A stretch of 64,000 nt of DNA from an uncultured Muribaculaceae bacterium (GTDB taxonomy: Bacteria; Bacteroidota; Bacteroidia; Bacteroidales; Muribaculaceae): the NCBI GenBank assembly GCA_910586595.1, contig CAJUJB010000010.1, positions 9,534-73,533 of the forward strand. The letters are read 5' to 3'. Below, in pieces: positions 3,524 to 36,642 of this stretch. Within the stretch, counting starts at the first letter, position 1, and each line of letters starts with the position of its first letter. A program made the position numbers and the translations under genes. Below the pieces are notes generated by a model. It was not told the DNA's origin, ran no database searches, and saw only the letters and a list, made by a program, of their open reading frames with translations.

Positions 3524-4495
3524 ATGAAATCTACTATATTAGCACTCTCCACAGCCTTGCTTCTCGCCTTTGGCGCTTCCGCACAGAACTATCAGCTCCC
3601 CGACCGTCATGCTTCGCAGCACGACCAGTTGCTCGCCAACCAGGGTAATGCCGGTATTTCTGTGGAAAATACGACAAAGTATCTCGAAGAACTCTTCAAT
3701 GAGGAAGAGGAGCCGGAATTTGACATCTATACCGAGGGTTGGGACAGCAAACTTGTGAATTGCTATGCAGGTGTAGCTGTGCCTCAGACTGCCGATATCG
3801 ACGTATCGAAATTCGCCATTCCTCACCCCGGCTATATCACTTCGCCCTATGGCTACCGCAAACGTTTCCGCCGTATGCACAAGGGCGTCGATCTCAAGGT
3901 GAACATCGGCGACACCATCCGCGCCGCATTTGACGGTCGTGTACGCATCACCAACTTCGAGCGTCGCGGATATGGCTACTATGTTGTAGTTCGTCATACC
4001 AACGACCTCGAGACCGTATACGGTCACCTTTCAGGCTTCCTCGTTGAGCCGGGCGCATATGTCAAAGCCGGCGATCCCATCGCCCTTGGTGGTAATACAG
4101 GCCGCTCCACCGGCCCGCATCTTCACTTCGAGACCCGCTATATGGGATATGCCATCAATCCCTGCGCCATCTTCGATTTCGCCAATCAGACCACACATAC
4201 CGATACGTTTACGTTCGACAAGCGTACTTATCAGAATGCCCGCAACTACTCACCTGCGGCAAACAGCGAGTACGCCAAGCAGTATCTGAAAGATAATCCC
4301 ATCAAGCCTTACAAGGCAACCGCCTCTTCAGGAAATACGTCGAAGAGCTCTTCCGCAAGCTACCGCGTGCGCAAAGGCGACTCTCTCAGCAAAATCGCGT
4401 CGCGCAACGGCACCACCGTGGCCAAATTGTGCAAGCTGAACGGTATAAGCACATCTACCAAACTGCAGGTCGGACAGCGCCTGAAACTACGTTAA
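3524..4495 (+). CDS. M23 family metallopeptidase with C-terminal LysM domain
   Basis: ORF 3479..4495 trimmed to MKSTILALSTALLLAFGASA (signal peptide). M23 motifs HKGVDL and GPHLHFE are present. LysM region: YRVRKGDSLSKIASRNGTTVAKLCKLNGI. Confidence 0.85.
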   Translation: MKSTILALSTALLLAFGASAQNYQLPDRHASQHDQLLANQGNAGISVENTTKYLEELFNEEEEPEFDIYTEGWDSKLVNCYAGVAVPQTADIDVSKFAIPHPGYITSPYGYRKRFRRMHKGVDLKVNIGDTIRAAFDGRVRITNFERRGYGYYVVVRHTNDLETVYGHLSGFLVEPGAYVKAGDPIALGGNTGRSTGPHLHFETRYMGYAINPCAIFDFANQTTHTDTFTFDKRTYQNARNYSPAANSEYAKQYLKDNPIKPYKATASSGNTSKSSSASYRVRKGDSLSKIASRNGTTVAKLCKLNGISTSTKLQVGQRLKLR

Positions 4496-4501
4496 AACGC
4501 C

Positions 4502-4981
4502 ATGTTTAAAAAATTTCTTCTTATCGTAGCCTTTGTGGTGGCTCTCTGCATGCCATCGGCTATGGCTGACGAGCCTTCCGGCGTGTCAAAAGCCGATCTT
4601 CTGAAGGTATGTGAGAAAGTTCTCTCCACCCCTGTCTCCGACACAACCAAGGCAGCCACCCTCAGTAGCGTTTTGATTGCCTCTATTTCAGAGACCAAAG
4701 ATTATTCACTCCTGCTGGGTGATTGGGTGAAGCCGTTCACGTCTGTTGAAAACTCCACCCCCTGGCTTCTTTCCGCCTACATAGCGGCCGATACCAAGTA
4801 TGGCGTCGAGCATGGCCTCAAAACTTCCGATCTGAGCACCGTCAAAGCCGGATATGAAGGGGCAATCGAGTTCTATAAGGCGAATAAGAAAAATATAAAG
4901 GCCTCAAAAGAATTCAAGGCCCTGCTTAAGATGGACTCCGCTCAGCTTGACGAGTACATCGCATCTGTCTATAAACGTTAG
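4502..4981 (+). CDS. hypothetical secreted protein
   Basis: 159-aa ORF starting 6 nt after the M23 gene, with N-terminal signal peptide MFKKFLLIVAFVVALCMPSAMA. I recognise no family. Confidence 0.5.
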   Translation: MFKKFLLIVAFVVALCMPSAMADEPSGVSKADLLKVCEKVLSTPVSDTTKAATLSSVLIASISETKDYSLLLGDWVKPFTSVENSTPWLLSAYIAADTKYGVEHGLKTSDLSTVKAGYEGAIEFYKANKKNIKASKEFKALLKMDSAQLDEYIASVYKR

Positions 4982-5072
4982 TTTATAATCATCCCCCAAA
5001 CGGTACGGCGCTATAAATTCCACCGCATCGGCTCGAAGATCAAGTTTCGACAAACTGATTAATACAACACAA

Positions 5073-5102
5073 AAAAGGACGCTCACTCAGAAGCGTCCTT
5101 TT
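5073..5102. terminator. bidirectional hairpin terminator between convergent genes
   Basis: aaaaggacgc / gcgtcctttt stem flanked by an A-run and a T-run. Confidence 0.6.
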
Positions 5103-5154
5103 ATGTGTGAATTGAAGCCGGCTCGAGAGAGCTTGGGCCAGCAGATCTTTTGTA

Positions 5155-6530
5155 TCAGTTGAGCGGAATAAGTGATACGATTGCGCGGTTGGGATCGCTG
5201 AATATAATGTTATATTGTGCGGTCTTCAGGTCAACCGACACTGCCACCTTGTAGCCGTCCGACCGACGCGTACCTGTCATCTGGGCTTTGGCATGATTAT
5301 AGTCTGTTTCGATTGTTGTGATGTCGATTTCGTTGGCAAGACCCAAGTCTTTGTAATTGAACGTTAAGGTGATGGGGTCAAACGACACAACCTTGCATAT
5401 CTTGCTGTTTTCTCTCACGAGGCCATAGAAGCGTCCGTCATTGGCCAGATTCTCTTTCCATAGCATGATATTGCTGTCATTTCCGTCGTTATCCAGACGA
5501 CTGAATTTTTTTGTACGCTTGTCGAATATTATGTACCAGCCATATCTATCGTTCGTTTTGATAATCACTTTATCGGATGTCTCATACCAGGAGCTGAGAT
5601 AAACCTCGCCTAAAATCTCTGGAGACTCTAATTCTAATGGCTCGACGGTGCTTTGACCGTACGATGTTCCGATTGTTATAAGTTTAGGCTCGTGTGACAC
5701 CTCCAATAGAGCATCTTCAAGTATTACATATGAGGTGCGGTTATACGGGTTATTGATGGTACCGAAGGCGTCGTAGCCTCCATTGGGATAGATGATACCG
5801 GCTGTTTCGCCGGTTCGCAAGAGATTGTCGCTCCAGCAGGGTATAAAATAGATTGAAGTGGCTACCACGCCTCCCTTCATTGCGAAAACTTTTGGGTAAT
5901 CTCCGTATGCTATCGGAGAGCCGTCGGTGCTGAGTTGCTCCCAAGTGCCCTTGTTGTCAGAGAGGGTGATACGGCCTACATACCCAGGAAAATCGGTAGA
6001 GGACGTATAGAAACTTGCAAGCAGATGTCCGGCTCCGTCTTCAGTAAATCCCGATCCTATCGGCTCGAAACTTGCGGGATGGTTGGAGGGTCCGATACCT
6101 TTGGCGCTGAATACAAGACCGTCGCTTCGGCGGACAATCAGATTGAAGTACTCGTCAGTTGCGTATACTGGGTCGCCGTCGGCATCGTAGTAATCACACG
6201 CTACGAACGCAATGTAGTTTTCTGTCAGATTATAAACGTAAGCGGGCGATACCGTCAGATTCGACAGAGATTCCTTTCCGTCTTCATTTACAAAGACTCC
6301 CACGGCCGAGAGTTGACCATCGTCGCCAAGTTTGAACATTTTTGCGGTGCTGAAGTCACCATCGGTGGCTCGTGACTGCGCTGGGCTGAGCATTGTGAGG
6401 GCTTGGCTGTTGGCGAGGTCAAAACGTGTTATTGTTTTACCCCCCCTAATTCATCTGATTTGCAGGATGTTAAGCAGCTTGCGAGCAAAGCCGCCGCCAT
6501 CAGGCCGGTTGATAATTTGAAGTTGGTCAT
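5155..6530 (-). pseudogene. lipoprotein gene of unknown function, interrupted by a frameshift at a G7 homopolymer (phase-OFF allele, pseudogene or homopolymer sequencing error)
   Basis: The ATG at 6530 opens MTNFKLSTGLMAAALLASCLTSCKSDELGGVKQ* (lipobox LLASC), which stops at 6429. The 412-codon body ORF 5155..6393 is open in another frame right up to the G-run. One extra G would fuse the two. Confidence 0.6.
6440..6446 (-). repeat. G7 (C7 on + strand) homopolymer at the frameshift point
   Basis: ttaccccccctaa on the + strand. It lies immediately after the lipoprotein signal peptide codons. Confidence 0.9.
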
Positions 6531-26889: not shown

Positions 26890-27183
26890 ATGAGAATATT
26901 CACTGAAAAATCGATAAATGAATATGCGAAAGCTCATCCGCAATCCAAAACGGCATTGCAGGATTGGGTAAAAAAAGTTCGGCGAGCAGACTGGACTTGT
27001 CTTGCTGATATTAAGGAGACGTTCAATTCTGTGGACTATGTTGGAAATCAGCGTTATGTTTTCAATATAAAGGGCAACGATTACAGGTTGGTTGTTGTTA
27101 TTCAATTTAGACCTAAGTTCATCTACATACGTTTTATAGGTACACATAAAGAATACGATAGGATTGATTGTTCCACCATTTAA
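26890..27183 (+). CDS. higB: type II toxin-antitoxin system toxin, HigB family
   Basis: 97 aa. The pattern MRIFTEKSINEYAKAHPQSKTALQDWVKKVRRADW...NIKGNDYRLVVVIQF...IRFIGTHKEYDRI is typical of HigB_toxin proteins. Confidence 0.75.
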   Translation: MRIFTEKSINEYAKAHPQSKTALQDWVKKVRRADWTCLADIKETFNSVDYVGNQRYVFNIKGNDYRLVVVIQFRPKFIYIRFIGTHKEYDRIDCSTI

Positions 27184-27196
27184 TATAGATACTAGT

Positions 27197-27574
27197 ATGA
27201 CTAAAATTGAGAACGAAGTCCAGTATGAATGGGCAGTACAGCGCGTTGAGGAACTCCTGCCGTTGGTGGATGATAACACCCCGGAAACAGATAAGAACTA
27301 TATAGAGTTGGTACTTCTGTCAAACTTAGTGGCCGACTACTCGGACGAGCATTATGCAATAGGCGAACCATCGCTTGTTGATATGTTGAAACTCCGCATG
27401 TACGAAATGGGGCTCACCCAAGTTGGACTCTCGAAGCTCCTCGGCATAAATCCCTCTCGTATCAGCGAATATCTTTCCGGCAAAAAAGAGCCAACCCTCT
27501 CACAGGCCCGTATCATAGTTGAACGTCTGAATATCGATCCTGCGACGGTTTTAGGCGTGCACTACGGCACATAA
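27197..27574 (+). CDS. higA: HTH (XRE-type) antitoxin, HigA-like
   Basis: Trimmed to MTKIENE, 13 nt after the higB stop. HTH region: LTQVGLSKLLGINPSRISEYLSGKKEPTLSQARIIVERL. Confidence 0.7.
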   Translation: MTKIENEVQYEWAVQRVEELLPLVDDNTPETDKNYIELVLLSNLVADYSDEHYAIGEPSLVDMLKLRMYEMGLTQVGLSKLLGINPSRISEYLSGKKEPTLSQARIIVERLNIDPATVLGVHYGT

Positions 27575-27787: not shown

Positions 27788-27788
27788 G

Positions 27789-27859
27789 AGGTTCCTAGCA
27801 GAATCGAACTGCTGTAAACGGTTTTGCAGACCGGTGCCTAACCACTCGGCCAAGGAACC
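27789..27859 (-). tRNA. tRNA-Cys (GCA)
   Basis: Folded by hand. 71 nt, GGTTCCT/AGGAACC acceptor stem, anticodon loop CTGCAAA, T-arm AGCAG-TTCGATT-CTGCT, U73 discriminator (a Cys identity element). One C-U mismatch sits at the top of the anticodon stem. Confidence 0.85.
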
Positions 27860-31505: not shown

Positions 31506-33434
31506 ATGGATCGTGTGGCGGCCCGGTGTCCGGCGCTGGCTCTGGCTTGTGCAGCCTTAGCCGCCACACTGCTTGCGGCCGGTCGGTCGTTGCCGGAGTT
31601 TGTTCTGGCTGGGCTGGTTTGCATCGTAGTTCCAATTATATTCCGCCATAACACCGGCGCACTGAAGGTTTTCCTCGGTGCGTCGGTCTTCGTATATTTA
31701 TGGACATTGTACCTCGCGCTGGTTCCCGTATCCGATTATTCAATCCACCAGTATACCGGAACCGTAGAGGAAATTACCGTAGGTGAGCGAGCCCAGACCG
31801 GACTTGTGGACGTCGACGGAATTGGTCGTGTGGGAATTGTTGTTATTGACATAGTTCCCGACATAGTGCCTGGCGACCGCATTGAGTTTACGGCTGCTTT
31901 GCAGCCTGCCAACCGATATGACGCCTTCCCATGGATGAGAATGAGCGCCATGGCAGCCCGTGCGCGGCGCGTTTCTGCGTCGGTTGTCCTTCCTCCGGGC
32001 GACATAACGGTGGTAGGGCACGATGACGGAATAGTCTACCGATTCGATTCTGTCAGGCGTCGAATTGCGGAAGCTGTATACGCCTCTCCGCTTAGCCCCG
32101 ATGCGTCGGCTCTTCTGGTGGCGTCATTTCTCGGCACGGGCGACAGCCCTCCCGCCATTAAAGATTCCTTCCGTGCAACCGGCCTCTCCCATCTGCTGTG
32201 TGTAAGCGGCTTCCACGTAGGCTTGGTGGCGGGTATCCTAGCCCTTATTCTGGCTCCGCTGAGGTTGTGGCGAGGACGACCGGGGCGACGGCTGCTGGCC
32301 GGAGTGACGCTGGTATGGCTCTATGCTATGGCGGTCGGATTTTCGCCATCGGTGGTGAGGGCATCCGTCATGATTACTGCCTATACGCTTGCGCGCATAC
32401 TCCAGCGGACACCGATGCCCGTTAATAATCTTTGTCTTGCCTTCTTTATGGTGCTTGCGGTCGATCCATACTGGCTATTTTCGGCAGGATTTCAATTATC
32501 GTTTGCCGCTGTGGCCGGATTGTTGCTGCTTGTGCCCAAGCTCAATCCCTTCGGCCATGACAGGCGTAATCTGCGCACATTGGCTAACCTTGTACTCGTT
32601 CCGTTGGTTGCCATGCTTGCCACGGCACCTGTAGTGCTCACATGGTTCCATAGTCTCCCTCTGTTTTCGGTTGTGGCCAATTCTGTCGGGGTGCTTATCT
32701 TCCCGGTGTTTATGATTGCCGGAGGGTTGAGTGTCGTGCTCTATGCTTTGGGGGTGCCCTCAGGCGTGTCGCTTGAAATAGCAGAATTGTGTCATCGCGC
32801 CGTAACGGCGCTGGCCGACAGGTTGGCCGACTTTGGCCTTGACTTCTCTTTCATGCCGGGAACCCTCACGGTTGTGGCTCTATCGGTGGGTCTGATTTCA
32901 TTGTGTGTCCTTCTTTATATCAAGCGAGGACGCCACTTCGCTGTGGCGGCTATATGTGTCTCTCTGCTGTGCACTGGGTGTGAGGGCACGCACGACCATG
33001 GCGTGTTGGTAATTGATGGCGACAGCCGGGGTATAAATATCGCGGTGGTCAACCCTGGGGCTGCAGAAATATATTCCAACCGCCGCGATGCCGCGACAGG
33101 AGCTGTGTTCGGTAGATTACTGCTTGATTATGGAGTGGAAGATGCCAACCTAAGCATTAATTCACTTAAACGGCACATAGTGGCGGAAAATAGGCTGGTT
33201 GCAGTGGCCGCCCGGGATTATGAACCCGATGAAGCATTGCAGCCCGATGTTTTGATTGTCTCGGCATCTTACCGAGGAGAGCCTTCATCACTATGGCAAA
33301 CCGAGCTCCCCACCTACGTCGTACTCGCCTCCGACATGACATATGAGCGCCGACAGACCTTGTCGTCTTACTTCACTGGCCTCGGGGCCCGCGTCACCGA
33401 TCTTCATACCGCCGCATTTATGGCTGAGCTGTAA
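31506..33434 (+). CDS. comEC: ComEC/Rec2 family competence membrane protein
   Basis: 642 aa. The competence-domain motif FRATGLSHLLCVSGFHVGLVAG is present. I saw no clear HxHxDH metallo-beta-lactamase motif in the C-terminal part. Confidence 0.8.
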   Translation: MDRVAARCPALALACAALAATLLAAGRSLPEFVLAGLVCIVVPIIFRHNTGALKVFLGASVFVYLWTLYLALVPVSDYSIHQYTGTVEEITVGERAQTGLVDVDGIGRVGIVVIDIVPDIVPGDRIEFTAALQPANRYDAFPWMRMSAMAARARRVSASVVLPPGDITVVGHDDGIVYRFDSVRRRIAEAVYASPLSPDASALLVASFLGTGDSPPAIKDSFRATGLSHLLCVSGFHVGLVAGILALILAPLRLWRGRPGRRLLAGVTLVWLYAMAVGFSPSVVRASVMITAYTLARILQRTPMPVNNLCLAFFMVLAVDPYWLFSAGFQLSFAAVAGLLLLVPKLNPFGHDRRNLRTLANLVLVPLVAMLATAPVVLTWFHSLPLFSVVANSVGVLIFPVFMIAGGLSVVLYALGVPSGVSLEIAELCHRAVTALADRLADFGLDFSFMPGTLTVVALSVGLISLCVLLYIKRGRHFAVAAICVSLLCTGCEGTHDHGVLVIDGDSRGINIAVVNPGAAEIYSNRRDAATGAVFGRLLLDYGVEDANLSINSLKRHIVAENRLVAVAARDYEPDEALQPDVLIVSASYRGEPSSLWQTELPTYVVLASDMTYERRQTLSSYFTGLGARVTDLHTAAFMAEL

Positions 33435-33596
33435 AATTTAGCCGTCTCCCGCGGCTGTCTCCATGGCTTCACTGACTCGAATTAAACAGCCCTTTAAAAC
33501 CAGCCTAAAATCGTATTTCATCAATTATATTTGCCATTTCCTGCATGTTTATGCATAAATCGGGGTTTATAATTTGCGAAATACTTATTTTGTAGC

Positions 33597-33604
33597 TATA
33601 TTTG
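33597..33604 (+). promoter_or_regulatory. -7 box TATATTTG upstream of the ATPase/RloB pair
   Basis: TAnnTTTG match 21 nt upstream of the ATG at 33625, inside the AT-rich island. Confidence 0.45.
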
Positions 33605-33624
33605 TTGCCTAAAATCCTTCTGTT

Positions 33625-34830
33625 ATGATTGTTGAATTCTCAATTAAGAATTTTAAATCTATCCGTTCTGAACAACGCATCAGCTTTGAGGCCTCCTCTG
33701 ATAATTATCTCTCGGAGGAGAGTACTGTGGAAGTAAAGAAAGGCATACGGCTTCTGAAGTTAGGCATAATCTATGGTGCCAATGCCTCAGGTAAGAGCAA
33801 TATCCTTCATGCACTTGATTATTTCAGAATGCTTGTTTGTTTTCAACCCACCGATCGTAATGAGCCGCTGGGTATTGTGCCGTTTCTTCTGGATGATAAA
33901 TCAGCTGACCAACACTCGGAAATGTCGATGTGCTTTTACCTTGACGGTGAAAAATATGTATTGTCCATTGAATTTGACAATGACCGTATTTATAATGAGG
34001 TACTTGTCGTCTATCTGTCGGCACGCCCTACCGAGTTGTATAATCGCAAATACAATAAAGACAATGATTCGTCTGAGATAACTTTCAGTTCAAAACTCGG
34101 ATTACTAAAAAAGAGCCAGCGCTTGATAGAAGGAAATACAATCAACAATCGTACAGTGCTGGCAGCTTTTAGCATAAGCAATGTGGAGTCGAGTCGATTG
34201 AATAAAGTTTATGATTTCTTTAATAAAACCCTCGAACCCATTATTGAGCCAAATTTGATATTGTCTCCGTTTATTCACCGTACTCTGGAAGGAGATAAGG
34301 ATGGTAGAGTCAAAGATTTTATATTGAGATTCCTCAAGGCATCAGATTTCAATATCAGCGGTATTGAGTGGAACCGTGGGCTCCCAGTGAGATTTCTGCA
34401 TAAGACCAATGATGGCATTCATACTTTGTCAGAAGATATGGAATCGACTGGCACACTTAGGTTTATGGGTATGAGCATCGTGCTGCAACATCTTCTTGAG
34501 CAAAACAAATTTGTGATAATGGATGAGGTTGAAAGTAGTATCCATTACGAGCTGTTGTCATATTTTTTGAAAGTGTTTCTTGTCAATGGAGAGAATCAGT
34601 CACAACTCTTGGTTACAACCCATGACATCAATCTTCTCAATGAAGATTTTATCCGGCGTGATCAGATATGGTTTACTGATAAAAATGAAGATGGTGAAAC
34701 TGAATTGAAACGTCTGACCGACCTCGGATTAAGTAAAAGATTATCGCCCTACAATGCCTACCGACAAGGAAAATTGGTCGATTTGCCATTTGTCGGAAGT
34801 GCATACCTTAACCTTAATGACGTTGAATGA
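33625..34830 (+). CDS. ABC/SMC-type AAA_21-like ATPase (AbiLi/RloA-like)
   Basis: 401 aa. Walker A GANASGKS (nt 33775-33798), signature-like ESTGTLRF, Walker B FVIMDEVESSIH and H-loop TTHD are present, with a helical insertion of about 220 aa between Walker A and the signature. Confidence 0.8.
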   Translation: MIVEFSIKNFKSIRSEQRISFEASSDNYLSEESTVEVKKGIRLLKLGIIYGANASGKSNILHALDYFRMLVCFQPTDRNEPLGIVPFLLDDKSADQHSEMSMCFYLDGEKYVLSIEFDNDRIYNEVLVVYLSARPTELYNRKYNKDNDSSEITFSSKLGLLKKSQRLIEGNTINNRTVLAAFSISNVESSRLNKVYDFFNKTLEPIIEPNLILSPFIHRTLEGDKDGRVKDFILRFLKASDFNISGIEWNRGLPVRFLHKTNDGIHTLSEDMESTGTLRFMGMSIVLQHLLEQNKFVIMDEVESSIHYELLSYFLKVFLVNGENQSQLLVTTHDINLLNEDFIRRDQIWFTDKNEDGETELKRLTDLGLSKRLSPYNAYRQGKLVDLPFVGSAYLNLNDVE

Positions 34831-35432
34831 TGAAAAAGAGAATTAGCATAGCCATTATCGGTGAGGGTGAGACTGAATGGTTTTACTTTGAGTCGCTGAG
34901 AGTTGCCAAAAGATACCCGTTTAAAGTGGCTCCAACGCTGGCTCAACACTCCGACATCGGTCACTTGGTGAAACTTGTGGAGCGATTCGTAAAAGAAGAT
35001 TTTGATCAGATATTCTGTTTGCTGGATATGGACCGCTTGTTAAGGGTTCCGAAGGAAATGCAGGTATATCTGAACGCAAAAAAGAAATATATCAAAGCCC
35101 GAGGCCCTAAAGTGTCATTTATAGAAACAAATCCATGTACTGAGTTTTGGTTCTTGCTTCATTTCTTGCCGGGGCTGACATCGAAGAACTATGCCACATA
35201 TGAGGACGTTCTTCCTGATTTGAGACGATATCTTCCCGATTACGATAAAACAAAACGTTATCTTGGCCGTACCAATCTATATCAGTACCTATGTCGGGAA
35301 GGCGACCTGTCGAGGGCTATGCAAAATTCAGAAATATTGAGAAAACTCAGCATGGAAAATCCGGAAGATTATCGGTCGTATTCGGAGATTCACCAAGTGC
35401 TGAAGGCTCTTGATGAATTTGCTAACAAATAA
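34827..35432 (+). CDS. RloB-like (Toprim-like) protein (AbiLii/RloB-like)
   Basis: 201 aa with an ATGA overlap onto the ATPase gene. IGEGETEWFYF, LLDMD and TNPCTEFWFLLHF match the RloB family consensus as I recall it (EGxxTE, DxD, NPCFElWlLLHF). Confidence 0.75.
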   Translation: MMKKRISIAIIGEGETEWFYFESLRVAKRYPFKVAPTLAQHSDIGHLVKLVERFVKEDFDQIFCLLDMDRLLRVPKEMQVYLNAKKKYIKARGPKVSFIETNPCTEFWFLLHFLPGLTSKNYATYEDVLPDLRRYLPDYDKTKRYLGRTNLYQYLCREGDLSRAMQNSEILRKLSMENPEDYRSYSEIHQVLKALDEFANK

Positions 35433-35485
35433 TCGTCAGTCGCTCTGCAAAACTAAATAAATTTGTTTTTGCCCTCGCTTATTCG

Positions 35486-35493
35486 TATTTTTG
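35486..35493 (+). promoter_or_regulatory. -7 box TATTTTTG upstream of tgt
   Basis: TAnnTTTG match 19 nt upstream of the ATG at 35512. Confidence 0.45.
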
Positions 35494-35511: not shown

Positions 35512-36642
35512 ATGAAGTTCACACTCCAACATACATGCGCCGATTGTGGCGCCCGAGCCGGTCTTATCGAAACTGACCATGGCCCTATCCAGACTCCTAT
35601 TTTCATGCCCGTCGGTACGGTCGGTACCGTCAAGGGTGTCCATATGCACGAGCTCCGCGATGATATAAAAGCCCAGATAATACTCGGCAACACCTATCAT
35701 CTCTATCTGCGCCCGGGTATGGATACGATTCACCGGGCTGGGGGTCTCCACCGTTTCAACGGATGGGAACGCCCCATCCTCACCGACAGCGGCGGCTTCC
35801 AGGTTTTCTCTCTCAGTTCTAACCGCAAACTTACTGAGGAAGGTGCCCACTTCCGCAGCCATATCGATGGTTCTAAGCATCTGTTTACTCCCGAGAATGT
35901 GGTGGATATTCAGCGCACCATCGGATCGGATATAATGATGGCCCTCGACGAATGTGCCCCCGGTACGTCGGATCGGGCTTACACGCGCCGCAGTCTCGAC
36001 CTGACAAAGCGCTGGCTCGAACGTGGCTGGAAACACTATAAGGAGACTGAGCCGCTATACGGTCATTATCAGTCGTACTTCCCCATTGTGCAGGGCTGCA
36101 CTTACCCCGACATGCGTCGTGAGGCTGCCGAGCACGCAGCTGCCCTCGGTGCCGACGGATATGCGATCGGTGGCTTGGCTGTGGGTGAGCCGGCTGAGGT
36201 GATGTATGATATGATTGAGGTGGTGAATGAGGTTCTGCCTACCGACCGCCCCCGTTACCTGATGGGTGTGGGTACCCCGATCAATATTCTCGAGGCTATC
36301 GACCGCGGAGTGGATATGATGGACTGTGTGATGCCTACCCGCAACGGCCGCAACGGCACTCTGTTCACCCCCGAAGGTACCATGAACATGCGCAATGCCA
36401 AGTGGGCCAACGATTTCTCTCCCCTCTGGCCCGACGGCCCCTCGATTGTTGACCAGGTCTATACCAAGGCCTATGTGCGCCATCTCTTTATTGCCAATGA
36501 GTTGCTGGCCATGCAGATAGCGTCCATCCATAATCTCGCCTTCTATCTCTGGCTCGTGGGCGAGGCCCGCAAGCACATAATCGCCGGAGATTTCCATGCG
36601 TGGAAGACCGATATGGTTCAGCGCCTGGGTCGTCGACTCTGA
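35512..36642 (+). CDS. tgt: tRNA-guanine transglycosylase (queuine tRNA-ribosyltransferase)
   Basis: Trimmed to MKFTLQHTCADCGARAGLIETDHGPIQTPIFMPVGT. LTDSGGFQVFSL, GGLAVGE and CVMPTRNGRNG are present. Confidence 0.92.
   Translation: MKFTLQHTCADCGARAGLIETDHGPIQTPIFMPVGTVGTVKGVHMHELRDDIKAQIILGNTYHLYLRPGMDTIHRAGGLHRFNGWERPILTDSGGFQVFSLSSNRKLTEEGAHFRSHIDGSKHLFTPENVVDIQRTIGSDIMMALDECAPGTSDRAYTRRSLDLTKRWLERGWKHYKETEPLYGHYQSYFPIVQGCTYPDMRREAAEHAAALGADGYAIGGLAVGEPAEVMYDMIEVVNEVLPTDRPRYLMGVGTPINILEAIDRGVDMMDCVMPTRNGRNGTLFTPEGTMNMRNAKWANDFSPLWPDGPSIVDQVYTKAYVRHLFIANELLAMQIASIHNLAFYLWLVGEARKHIIAGDFHAWKTDMVQRLGRRL

Follow-up and report, generated by a model that had tools for sequence, protein, structure and literature searches.

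A two-gene AbiL/RloAB-type cassette between comEC and tgt in an uncultured mouse-gut Muribaculaceae species: a candidate anti-phage module

The DNA considered here is a window of 64,000 nucleotides from contig CAJUJB010000010.1 of an uncultured mouse-gut Muribaculaceae species, and the element of interest within it is an AT-rich island of two open reading frames (ORFs) that sits between comEC and tgt. ORF1 (33625-34830, + strand, 401 amino acids) encodes a stand-alone ABC/SMC-type ATPase of the AbiLi type, and ORF2 (34827-35432, + strand, 201 amino acids) encodes an RloB-family protein of the AbiLii type. The two overlap in the ATGA at 34827-34830, which can be read directly in the sequence, as had been reported in an earlier note on this DNA that was made from the letters and their translations. 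That note also described an AT-rich block of about 2 kb between GC-rich genes, with comEC ending at 33434 and the tgt promoter box beginning at 35486; both boundaries were confirmed, and the GC content of the block is about 0.39, as compared with about 0.55 for its flanks. The island ranges from 0.38 to 0.42 and the flanks from 0.53 to 0.57; taken gene by gene, ORF1 (0.393) and ORF2 (0.419) fall well below comEC (31506-33434; 0.557) and tgt (0.562), and GC content at third codon positions is lowered likewise. An AT-rich leader and promoter region of 190 bp (33435-33624, + strand, GC 0.368) precedes ORF1, and an AT-rich spacer on the same strand (35433-35485) forms the right end of the insert, after which the native sequence restarts at the -7 box of tgt (a TAnnTTTG box at 35486-35493, with the true ATG of the gene at 35512). 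We take the pair to be a horizontally acquired AbiL/RloAB-type anti-phage module, working by abortive infection or in a toxin-antitoxin-like mode, and put the probability of this reading at roughly three in four.

ORF1 is an intact ABC/SMC-type ATPase, with all four motifs and an ABC head fold. It matches the Pfam families AAA_21 (4.3e-27) and AAA_15 (1.6e-9) and the PADLOC model AbiLi (PDLC02335; 1.2e-69, 232.9 bits); it also has weak matches to RecF and SMC_N, matches PtuA at only 4.9e-7, and scores 27.3 bits against NCBIfam NF047739 (the MAD3 ATPase), for which the cut-off is 420. NCBIfam holds no equivalog for either ORF1 or ORF2. The Walker A motif GANASGKS (residues 51-58, with the lysine at K57), the signature-like ESTGT (273-277), the Walker B motif FVIMDEVE (296-303) and the H-loop TTHD (331-334) all lie at the positions given for them in the earlier note, and the Walker A residues G51 to K57, the signature residues E273, S274, G276 and T277, the Walker B residues D300 and E301 and the H-loop residue H333 do not vary among 36 ORF1 homologs. 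The AlphaFold2 model of ORF1 (predicted local distance difference test score, pLDDT, 85.8) matches in Foldseek the heads of Rad50 and SMC proteins as well as the defence ATPase PtuA, with E values of about 1e-10 to 1e-11; the PtuA structures concerned, 8eea, 8ee4 and 9l7p (E about 1e-10), come from Septu and retron complexes. The description of ORF1 as an SMC/ABC-like ATPase of the AAA_21 type is upheld by its Pfam match, and the "long helical insertion" that accompanied it can be refined to a helical region of about 80 amino acids (about residues 160-240 in the model), not a coiled coil of Rad50 length. Relative to the human-gut clade of the family, the ATPases of the Muribaculaceae clade are without some 33 residues of the helical region (at about residues 247-256 of ORF1, between DFNI and F-HK). 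The C-terminal tail from S374 to Y394 (34744-34806), with the pattern SPYNAYxQGKLxxLPFxGxxY, is near-invariant across homologs and is modelled as disordered, with AlphaFold confidence dropping to 59 over residues 381-390 and to less than 50 from residue 388 onwards. This tail may be a docking peptide, either for RloB or for oligomerisation.

ORF2 is likewise an intact member of its family. It matches Pfam RloB (PF13707) at 1.2e-28 over the whole model (1-195 of 195), scoring 101.1 bits where the Pfam gathering threshold is 31.5, and its sole PADLOC match is to AbiLii (PDLC02337; 3.8e-19). The motifs EGETE (residues 13-17), DMD (67-69) and NPCTEFWFLLHF (102-113) are found at the places claimed for them. 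The RloB family is large, comprising 2,124 clusters at 50% identity, and 67 diverse homologs of ORF2, 25-51% identical to it and all 67 matched by Pfam RloB, allow the conserved positions to be picked out: G14, E17, D67, D69 and Y139 are the same in all of them, and E13, E106, W108 and K141 are conserved in at least 90%. Of the acidic residues that had been singled out beforehand, E13, E15 and the DMD pair, E13 and the DMD are conserved and E15 is not; in the deep alignment the conserved acidic residues of the family are E13, E17, D67 and D69, giving the constellation E-G-x-x-E ... D-x-D. The AlphaFold2 model of ORF2 (pLDDT 76.9) has a beta-alpha-beta-alpha-beta-alpha-beta N-terminal domain followed by a helical C-terminal half, with a strand at 7-12 immediately preceding E13 and strand 3, at 61-67, ending in the DMD.

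With AbiLi and AbiLii both present, adjacent and on the same strand, the ATPase first, the cassette is an AbiL system as PADLOC defines it; the defence family is already catalogued, and standard annotators would call the cassette. The matches of both ORFs, to AAA_21 and RloB in Pfam and to AbiLi (ORF1) and AbiLii (ORF2) in PADLOC, support the AbiL/RloAB-type identification that had been put forward from the sequence. The prototype, AbiL of Lactococcus lactis plasmid pND861, as represented by the PADLOC models, shares with the window copy the operon order of ATPase first and RloB-type protein second on the same strand, and both of its models are matched; the lactococcal system, however, is borne on a plasmid of a Firmicutes host, whereas the present one is chromosomal, lies between core genes and belongs to a member of the Bacteroidota. 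RloA/RloB of the type I restriction-modification (R-M) loci of Campylobacter jejuni has in common with it the full-length RloB match and the ATPase partner, but is embedded in a type I hsd locus, while the window copy is without hsd genes.

Several better-known systems resemble the cassette in part. PARIS (AriA/AriB), which likewise splits an ABC ATPase from a small effector with an acidic motif, is the best mechanistic analogy (PMC11464382, PMC13064643); the AriB-type DUF4435 is not matched by ORF2 in PADLOC or Pfam, however, which places the pair outside PARIS, and where the 401-residue ORF1 matches the AriA models of PADLOC, this looks like generic similarity of the AAA_21/AAA_15 kind. In a published superposition, AbiLii fits AriB poorly (PMC13064643). 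In the case of Gabija, the ORF1 family aligns with GajA over the region of the signature, Walker B and H-loop (hhalign E 5e-5), and the distance from E-G-x-x-E to D-x-D is similar, 54 residues in ORF2 and 51 in GajA taken from cassettes that neighbour relatives of the pair (E498-G-x-x-E502 and D549-x-D551). GajA, though, is a fused ATPase-Toprim protein working with the UvrD-like GajB, whereas here the domains are split and the island has no helicase, so that the cassette is not a Gabija system; nor was similarity between ORF2 and the OLD/GajA effector statistically detectable in this analysis. The ORF1 model superposes on PtuA of Septu (PtuA/PtuB) and of the retron-associated PtuAB, but PtuB is an HNH nuclease and ORF2 is of the RloB type, which sets the pair apart from Septu, and membership of MADS is excluded by the failure of ORF1 to reach the cut-off of the MAD3 model NF047739.

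The cassette is foreign to this chromosome, as seen both in its composition and in the comparison of junctions, and the earlier description of it as an accessory block is upheld. In 80 other related Muribaculaceae species, whose Tgt is 77-94% identical, neither ORF1 nor ORF2 occurs near tgt. One of them, locus L012 of our comparison set, presents an empty site: the order is PF03601 protein, comEC and tgt, the comEC stop lies inside the -7 box of tgt, and the gap is 25 bp. A 513-residue multi-pass membrane protein stands between comEC and tgt in a second locus, L023. The TAnnTTTG-CAG box followed by ATGAA(A/G)TTCAC at tgt in the window recurs at these two island-free junctions, and since homology to the empty junctions restarts at 35486, the insert can be delimited to about 33435-35485. 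Its left junction cannot be aligned to that of L012, because the ComEC protein there (comEC at 4065-5975) is only 38% identical to that of the window, as compared with 90% for the PF03601 protein and 91% each for Tgt and LptF/G; ComEC is also only 36-39% identical in L023 and L032, and this lineage has seen either extremely fast evolution of comEC or its replacement. More generally, the tgt-lptF/G pair is conserved across the Muribaculaceae (L009-L088), and the upstream neighbour of tgt varies in most species, the commonest being a 303-residue protein found in 21 of 71 loci. The junction upstream of tgt is a synteny breakpoint or an insertion-prone site.

These observations bear directly on the idea that the two genes form a housekeeping pair for DNA repair or chromosome maintenance, a Rad50/RecF/SbcC-like ATPase with its nuclease, possibly tied to comEC. 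The presence of Rad50 and SMC heads among the best structural matches of ORF1, its weak RecF and SMC_N matches and the position of the cassette on the comEC strand with no terminator between would all suit such a role. A housekeeping pair would not, however, be expected to be missing at this locus from all 80 related species, with an empty junction in L012, to have a foreign composition and its own conserved promoter, or to turn up in many settings that are unrelated, plasmids and phages among them, and ORF1 is without the long coiled coil; we regard this explanation as extremely improbable.

That the cassette moves as a unit is suggested by bare modules found elsewhere. DNA similarity to four or five bare modules in unrelated chromosomal settings spans 33513-35425 and is limited to the cassette, beginning 55-110 bp upstream of ORF1 and ending at the ORF2 stop codon, and in each of the hosts the GC content of the pair is below that of its surroundings. 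Within the clade that shares the 401-residue ATPase, the pair is found beside SusC/D and DUF4369 genes, beside Impact_N and HAD hydrolase genes, by a fimbrial operon, by an Asp-Al_Ex transporter and by a Schlafen-like helicase, and in none of these contexts is a recombinase seen to travel with it. The two genes are co-inherited, and the identity ladders of ORF1 and ORF2 across homologs run in parallel. Both genes are under purifying selection: against three bare-module relatives, nonsynonymous divergence (pN) is 0.11-0.15 for ORF1 and 0.10-0.17 for ORF2, while synonymous divergence (pS) exceeds 0.8 and is saturated, for which reason pN and pS are given here and no dN/dS ratio.

The leader is also part of what is shared. 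The earlier note had assigned the pair a -7 box of its own, and TATATTTG is indeed present at 33597-33604, with a second, distal copy of TATATTTG at 33526-33533; between them lies a palindrome, TGCAT-GTTT-ATGCA, at 33542-33555. Homology of the leader to the bare modules L089, L093 and L103 starts at 33513-33571, and the proximal -7 box together with a TGCA-N4-5-TGCA dyad about 50 bp upstream of it is conserved in four modules from different genomes and contexts, these three included. From the published Bacteroidetes consensus TAnnTTTG, the leader would act as the promoter of the cassette; the palindrome may be an operator, in a cassette that is itself without a regulator gene. Conservation of the promoter, low pN/pS, the intactness of both ORFs with every catalytic residue in place and the identity of the sequence across many assemblies all argue against the cassette being a relic of an earlier transfer that is inactive and serves no function today. 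The loss of the RloB core from a related module and the lack of remaining mobility genes here would suit a relic, but on balance we think this hardly credible.

The wider family is best known to us from a metagenome scan that returned 80 loci, mostly from the human gut, with pairs about 60% identical to that of the window and an ATPase of 432 residues; the survey of contexts covers 84 loci with about 65 distinct combinations of flanks. Wherever the contig allows, the ATPase gene is directly upstream of the RloB gene, the exceptions being L161 and the three loci L173-L175, where the ATPase is fragmented, and the two genes usually overlap or stand a few bases apart. The cassette immediately downstream is Gabija (GajA/GajB, in two variants) at 23 loci, Thoeris (ThsB-ThsA-ThsB) at nine, PDC-S06 at seven and the Hachiman-type HamA at four. 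A type IIG R-M enzyme of the Eco57I-like kind is encoded a few genes downstream of the pair in 34 of the 84 loci; tyrosine integrases occur in 14 of the 84, and these and DUF5045 genes lie upstream of the pair in many loci. Throughout L102-L181 (for example L112, L121, L129 and L144) the pair is the constant first cassette, followed by a swappable second one and then by the convergent type IIG R-M gene, an arrangement suggestive of a defined hotspot for defence genes within an integrative element. The swappable cassettes also include unknown proteins of 481, 313 and 589 residues, and the unnamed ones (clusters 8, 22 and 29) may be uncharacterised systems. Beyond these loci, the genes on Phocaeicola vulgatus plasmid pPvulCL10_1 run ATPase-RloB-TIR-SIR2-TIR, and the next one bears the annotation of a retron-system HNH endonuclease; a 3.7-kb ColE1-type plasmid of Escherichia coli has no cargo other than the pair, and RloB is also encoded by a Klebsiella prophage. 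Relatives of the pair thus occupy defence islands, plasmids, integrative elements and a prophage.

The frequency of the type IIG gene, and the fact that the RloB family takes its name from type I R-M loci (PMC10440598), might suggest that the pair is an accessory of R-M, comparable to rloA/rloB in the Campylobacter hsd loci and modulating or backing restriction encoded elsewhere. Within about 6 kb to each side of the window copy, however, R-M genes are absent, hsd included, and many bare two-gene copies exist. In the loci on mobile elements, moreover, the cassette that separates the pair from the R-M gene varies, which suggests neighbouring but independent systems, and we think an accessory role of this kind very unlikely. 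The statement that hsd genes, an integrase and flanking repeats are all missing from the island agrees with the calls for its neighbours and with a repeat search.

As to how an AbiL/RloAB-type anti-phage module of this sort might work, PARIS AriA/AriB and P2 OLD provide the analogy: ORF1 would oligomerise, bind ORF2 and hold it inactive, and a phage-derived cue would shift the state of the ATPase and so release or activate ORF2. The latter is pictured as a Mg2+-dependent, Toprim-like nuclease that would cut host and/or phage nucleic acid and bring about growth arrest ahead of phage release. Since AriB and P2 OLD are tRNases according to the literature, the substrate would most plausibly be the anticodon loops of tRNA, the alternative being DNA nicking as in Gabija. 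AbiL has been grouped with the systems in which an ABC ATPase is combined with a TOPRIM protein (PMC11464382; PMC13064643; PMC10440598), and ORF2 does show a Toprim-like pattern, with a glutamate following strand 1 and a DxD closing strand 3 of a four-stranded alpha/beta domain. A 2026 review (PMC13064643) describes the trigger and the effector chemistry of AbiL/RloAB as unresolved, as the earlier note had said, and leaves it to be determined whether the system works in the manner of PARIS.

A number of points weigh against this reading or parts of it. The most extensive concern the Toprim relationship, which the motifs and strand topology of the ORF2 model would fit and the statistics of fold and sequence do not support, so that it is not confirmed. 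Alignment of the ORF2 family with GajA by hhalign gave E values of 0.68 and 0.19, which are not significant, the sole segment aligned in the second case being the EGxxE stretch. A Foldseek search of the PDB with the ORF2 model found generic alpha/beta folds at best (E 9e-3), and one of BFVD returned "RloB-like protein" only; profile searches of PDB sequences with ORF2 gave no match, and no relative of either ORF was detectable among those sequences. Bridges to other families within the 67 ORF2 homologs are weak, DUF4276 being matched by nine (best 1e-4) and OLD-like_TOPRIM by two (E 0.19). Further, the copy in the window lies outside any defence island and has no mobility gene, and for that reason the argument from defence context has to draw on relatives, which share only about 60% identity. 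The cassette is also at fixation among the strains sampled from the species, with no polymorphism for its presence or absence seen: all 24 contigs read that have an identical Tgt keep the same neighbourhood, including the island, the collection has 128 blocks that list the identical ORF1, and the one ComEC variant looked up, from a 90% ComEC cluster of six members, has the same 190-bp gap and a downstream gene that breaks off where the contig ends, which fits the presence of the island. Finally, in the searchable literature no AbiL example from the Bacteroidales or Muribaculaceae was found, which accords with the earlier remark that no characterised Bacteroidales example was known.

Fixation is also among the observations that would suit a selfish toxin-antitoxin (addiction) module, in which ORF2 is the toxin and ORF1 its neutraliser, there is no phage defence, and the pair persists as its loss is costly. 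In NetFlax, AAA-ATPase/RloB and AAA/TOPRIM_OLD pairs belong to the type II toxin-antitoxin network, some of them validated by toxicity and neutralisation (PMC10440598), and the occurrence of the pair as sole cargo of small mobilizable plasmids would go well with a role in stabilisation. The module at L186-L188, 84% identical to that of the window, is also of interest here: it has an intact 401-residue ATPase and an RloB with an in-frame deletion of residues of about 31-141, which in L186 (7206-7469) leaves 87 residues and removes the DxD, E100 and E106. Loss of the RloB core with retention of the ATPase would suit an addiction module, and it counts equally towards the anti-phage reading, as it fits ORF2 as a dispensable or toxic partner and would be expected of a toxic effector. 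A single-copy chromosomal cassette has nothing to stabilise, however; relatives lie within arrays of genuine defence systems; and the L. lactis prototype AbiL gives phage resistance (Deng 1999, as cited in PMC13064643). Toxin-antitoxin behaviour and abortive infection are, besides, not mutually exclusive, PARIS being both (PMC13064643). Addiction without defence seems to us unlikely.

The position of the cassette beside tgt raises one further idea, that RloB is a tRNA anticodon-loop nuclease linked to queuosine-modified tRNAs, for example sensing or exploiting the modification during infection. AbiL-type pairs, inserted independently, directly adjoin queuosine genes in two of the roughly 65 contexts, tgt in the window (35512) and queC in L097-L101 (4679-5335). 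No further tgt or queC neighbour was found in the 84 context loci by tblastn and blastp, nor in four more look-ups within the clade of the window copy. As there is no recurrence in the other 63 or so contexts, the adjacency is probably coincidence and was treated as such; we attach very little credence to the link.

The remaining features of the neighbourhood can be dealt with briefly. The neighbourhood of the cassette comprises aroE, the gene for the PF03601 membrane protein, comEC, tgt and lptF/G. No integrase is found among the called neighbours, and no flanking direct repeats were found around the island. A 15-nucleotide inverted pair (33278-33292 and 35396-35410) was considered as the ends of an element and rejected, since its arms fall within comEC and ORF2 coding sequence and we estimate that about 0.2 such pairs would be expected by chance. 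The + strand has no terminator within the island or after ORF2, and Rfam gave only sub-threshold chance matches for non-coding RNA in the leader and spacer. The closest tRNA gene, about 5.6 kb upstream, is a tRNA-Cys (27788-27859). Adjoining it, about 6 kb upstream of the island, is a pair resembling a HigB toxin and an HTH_3 antitoxin (26890-27574), identical in sequence (100%) to HigB_toxin and HTH_3 genes annotated in locus L182.

The cassette leaves the kind of system unchanged and is no discovery in itself. What the locus adds is a compact, intact Bacteroidales representative of AbiL whose native promoter is placed to within about 110 bp and which can be compared with a clean empty site, and it is a useful candidate for those studying the mechanism of AbiL. 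The occurrence of pairs about 60% identical to it as the constant first cassette of otherwise variable defence islands, carried by mobile elements of human-gut Bacteroidales, gives the family relevance to the dynamics between phages and their hosts in the gut.

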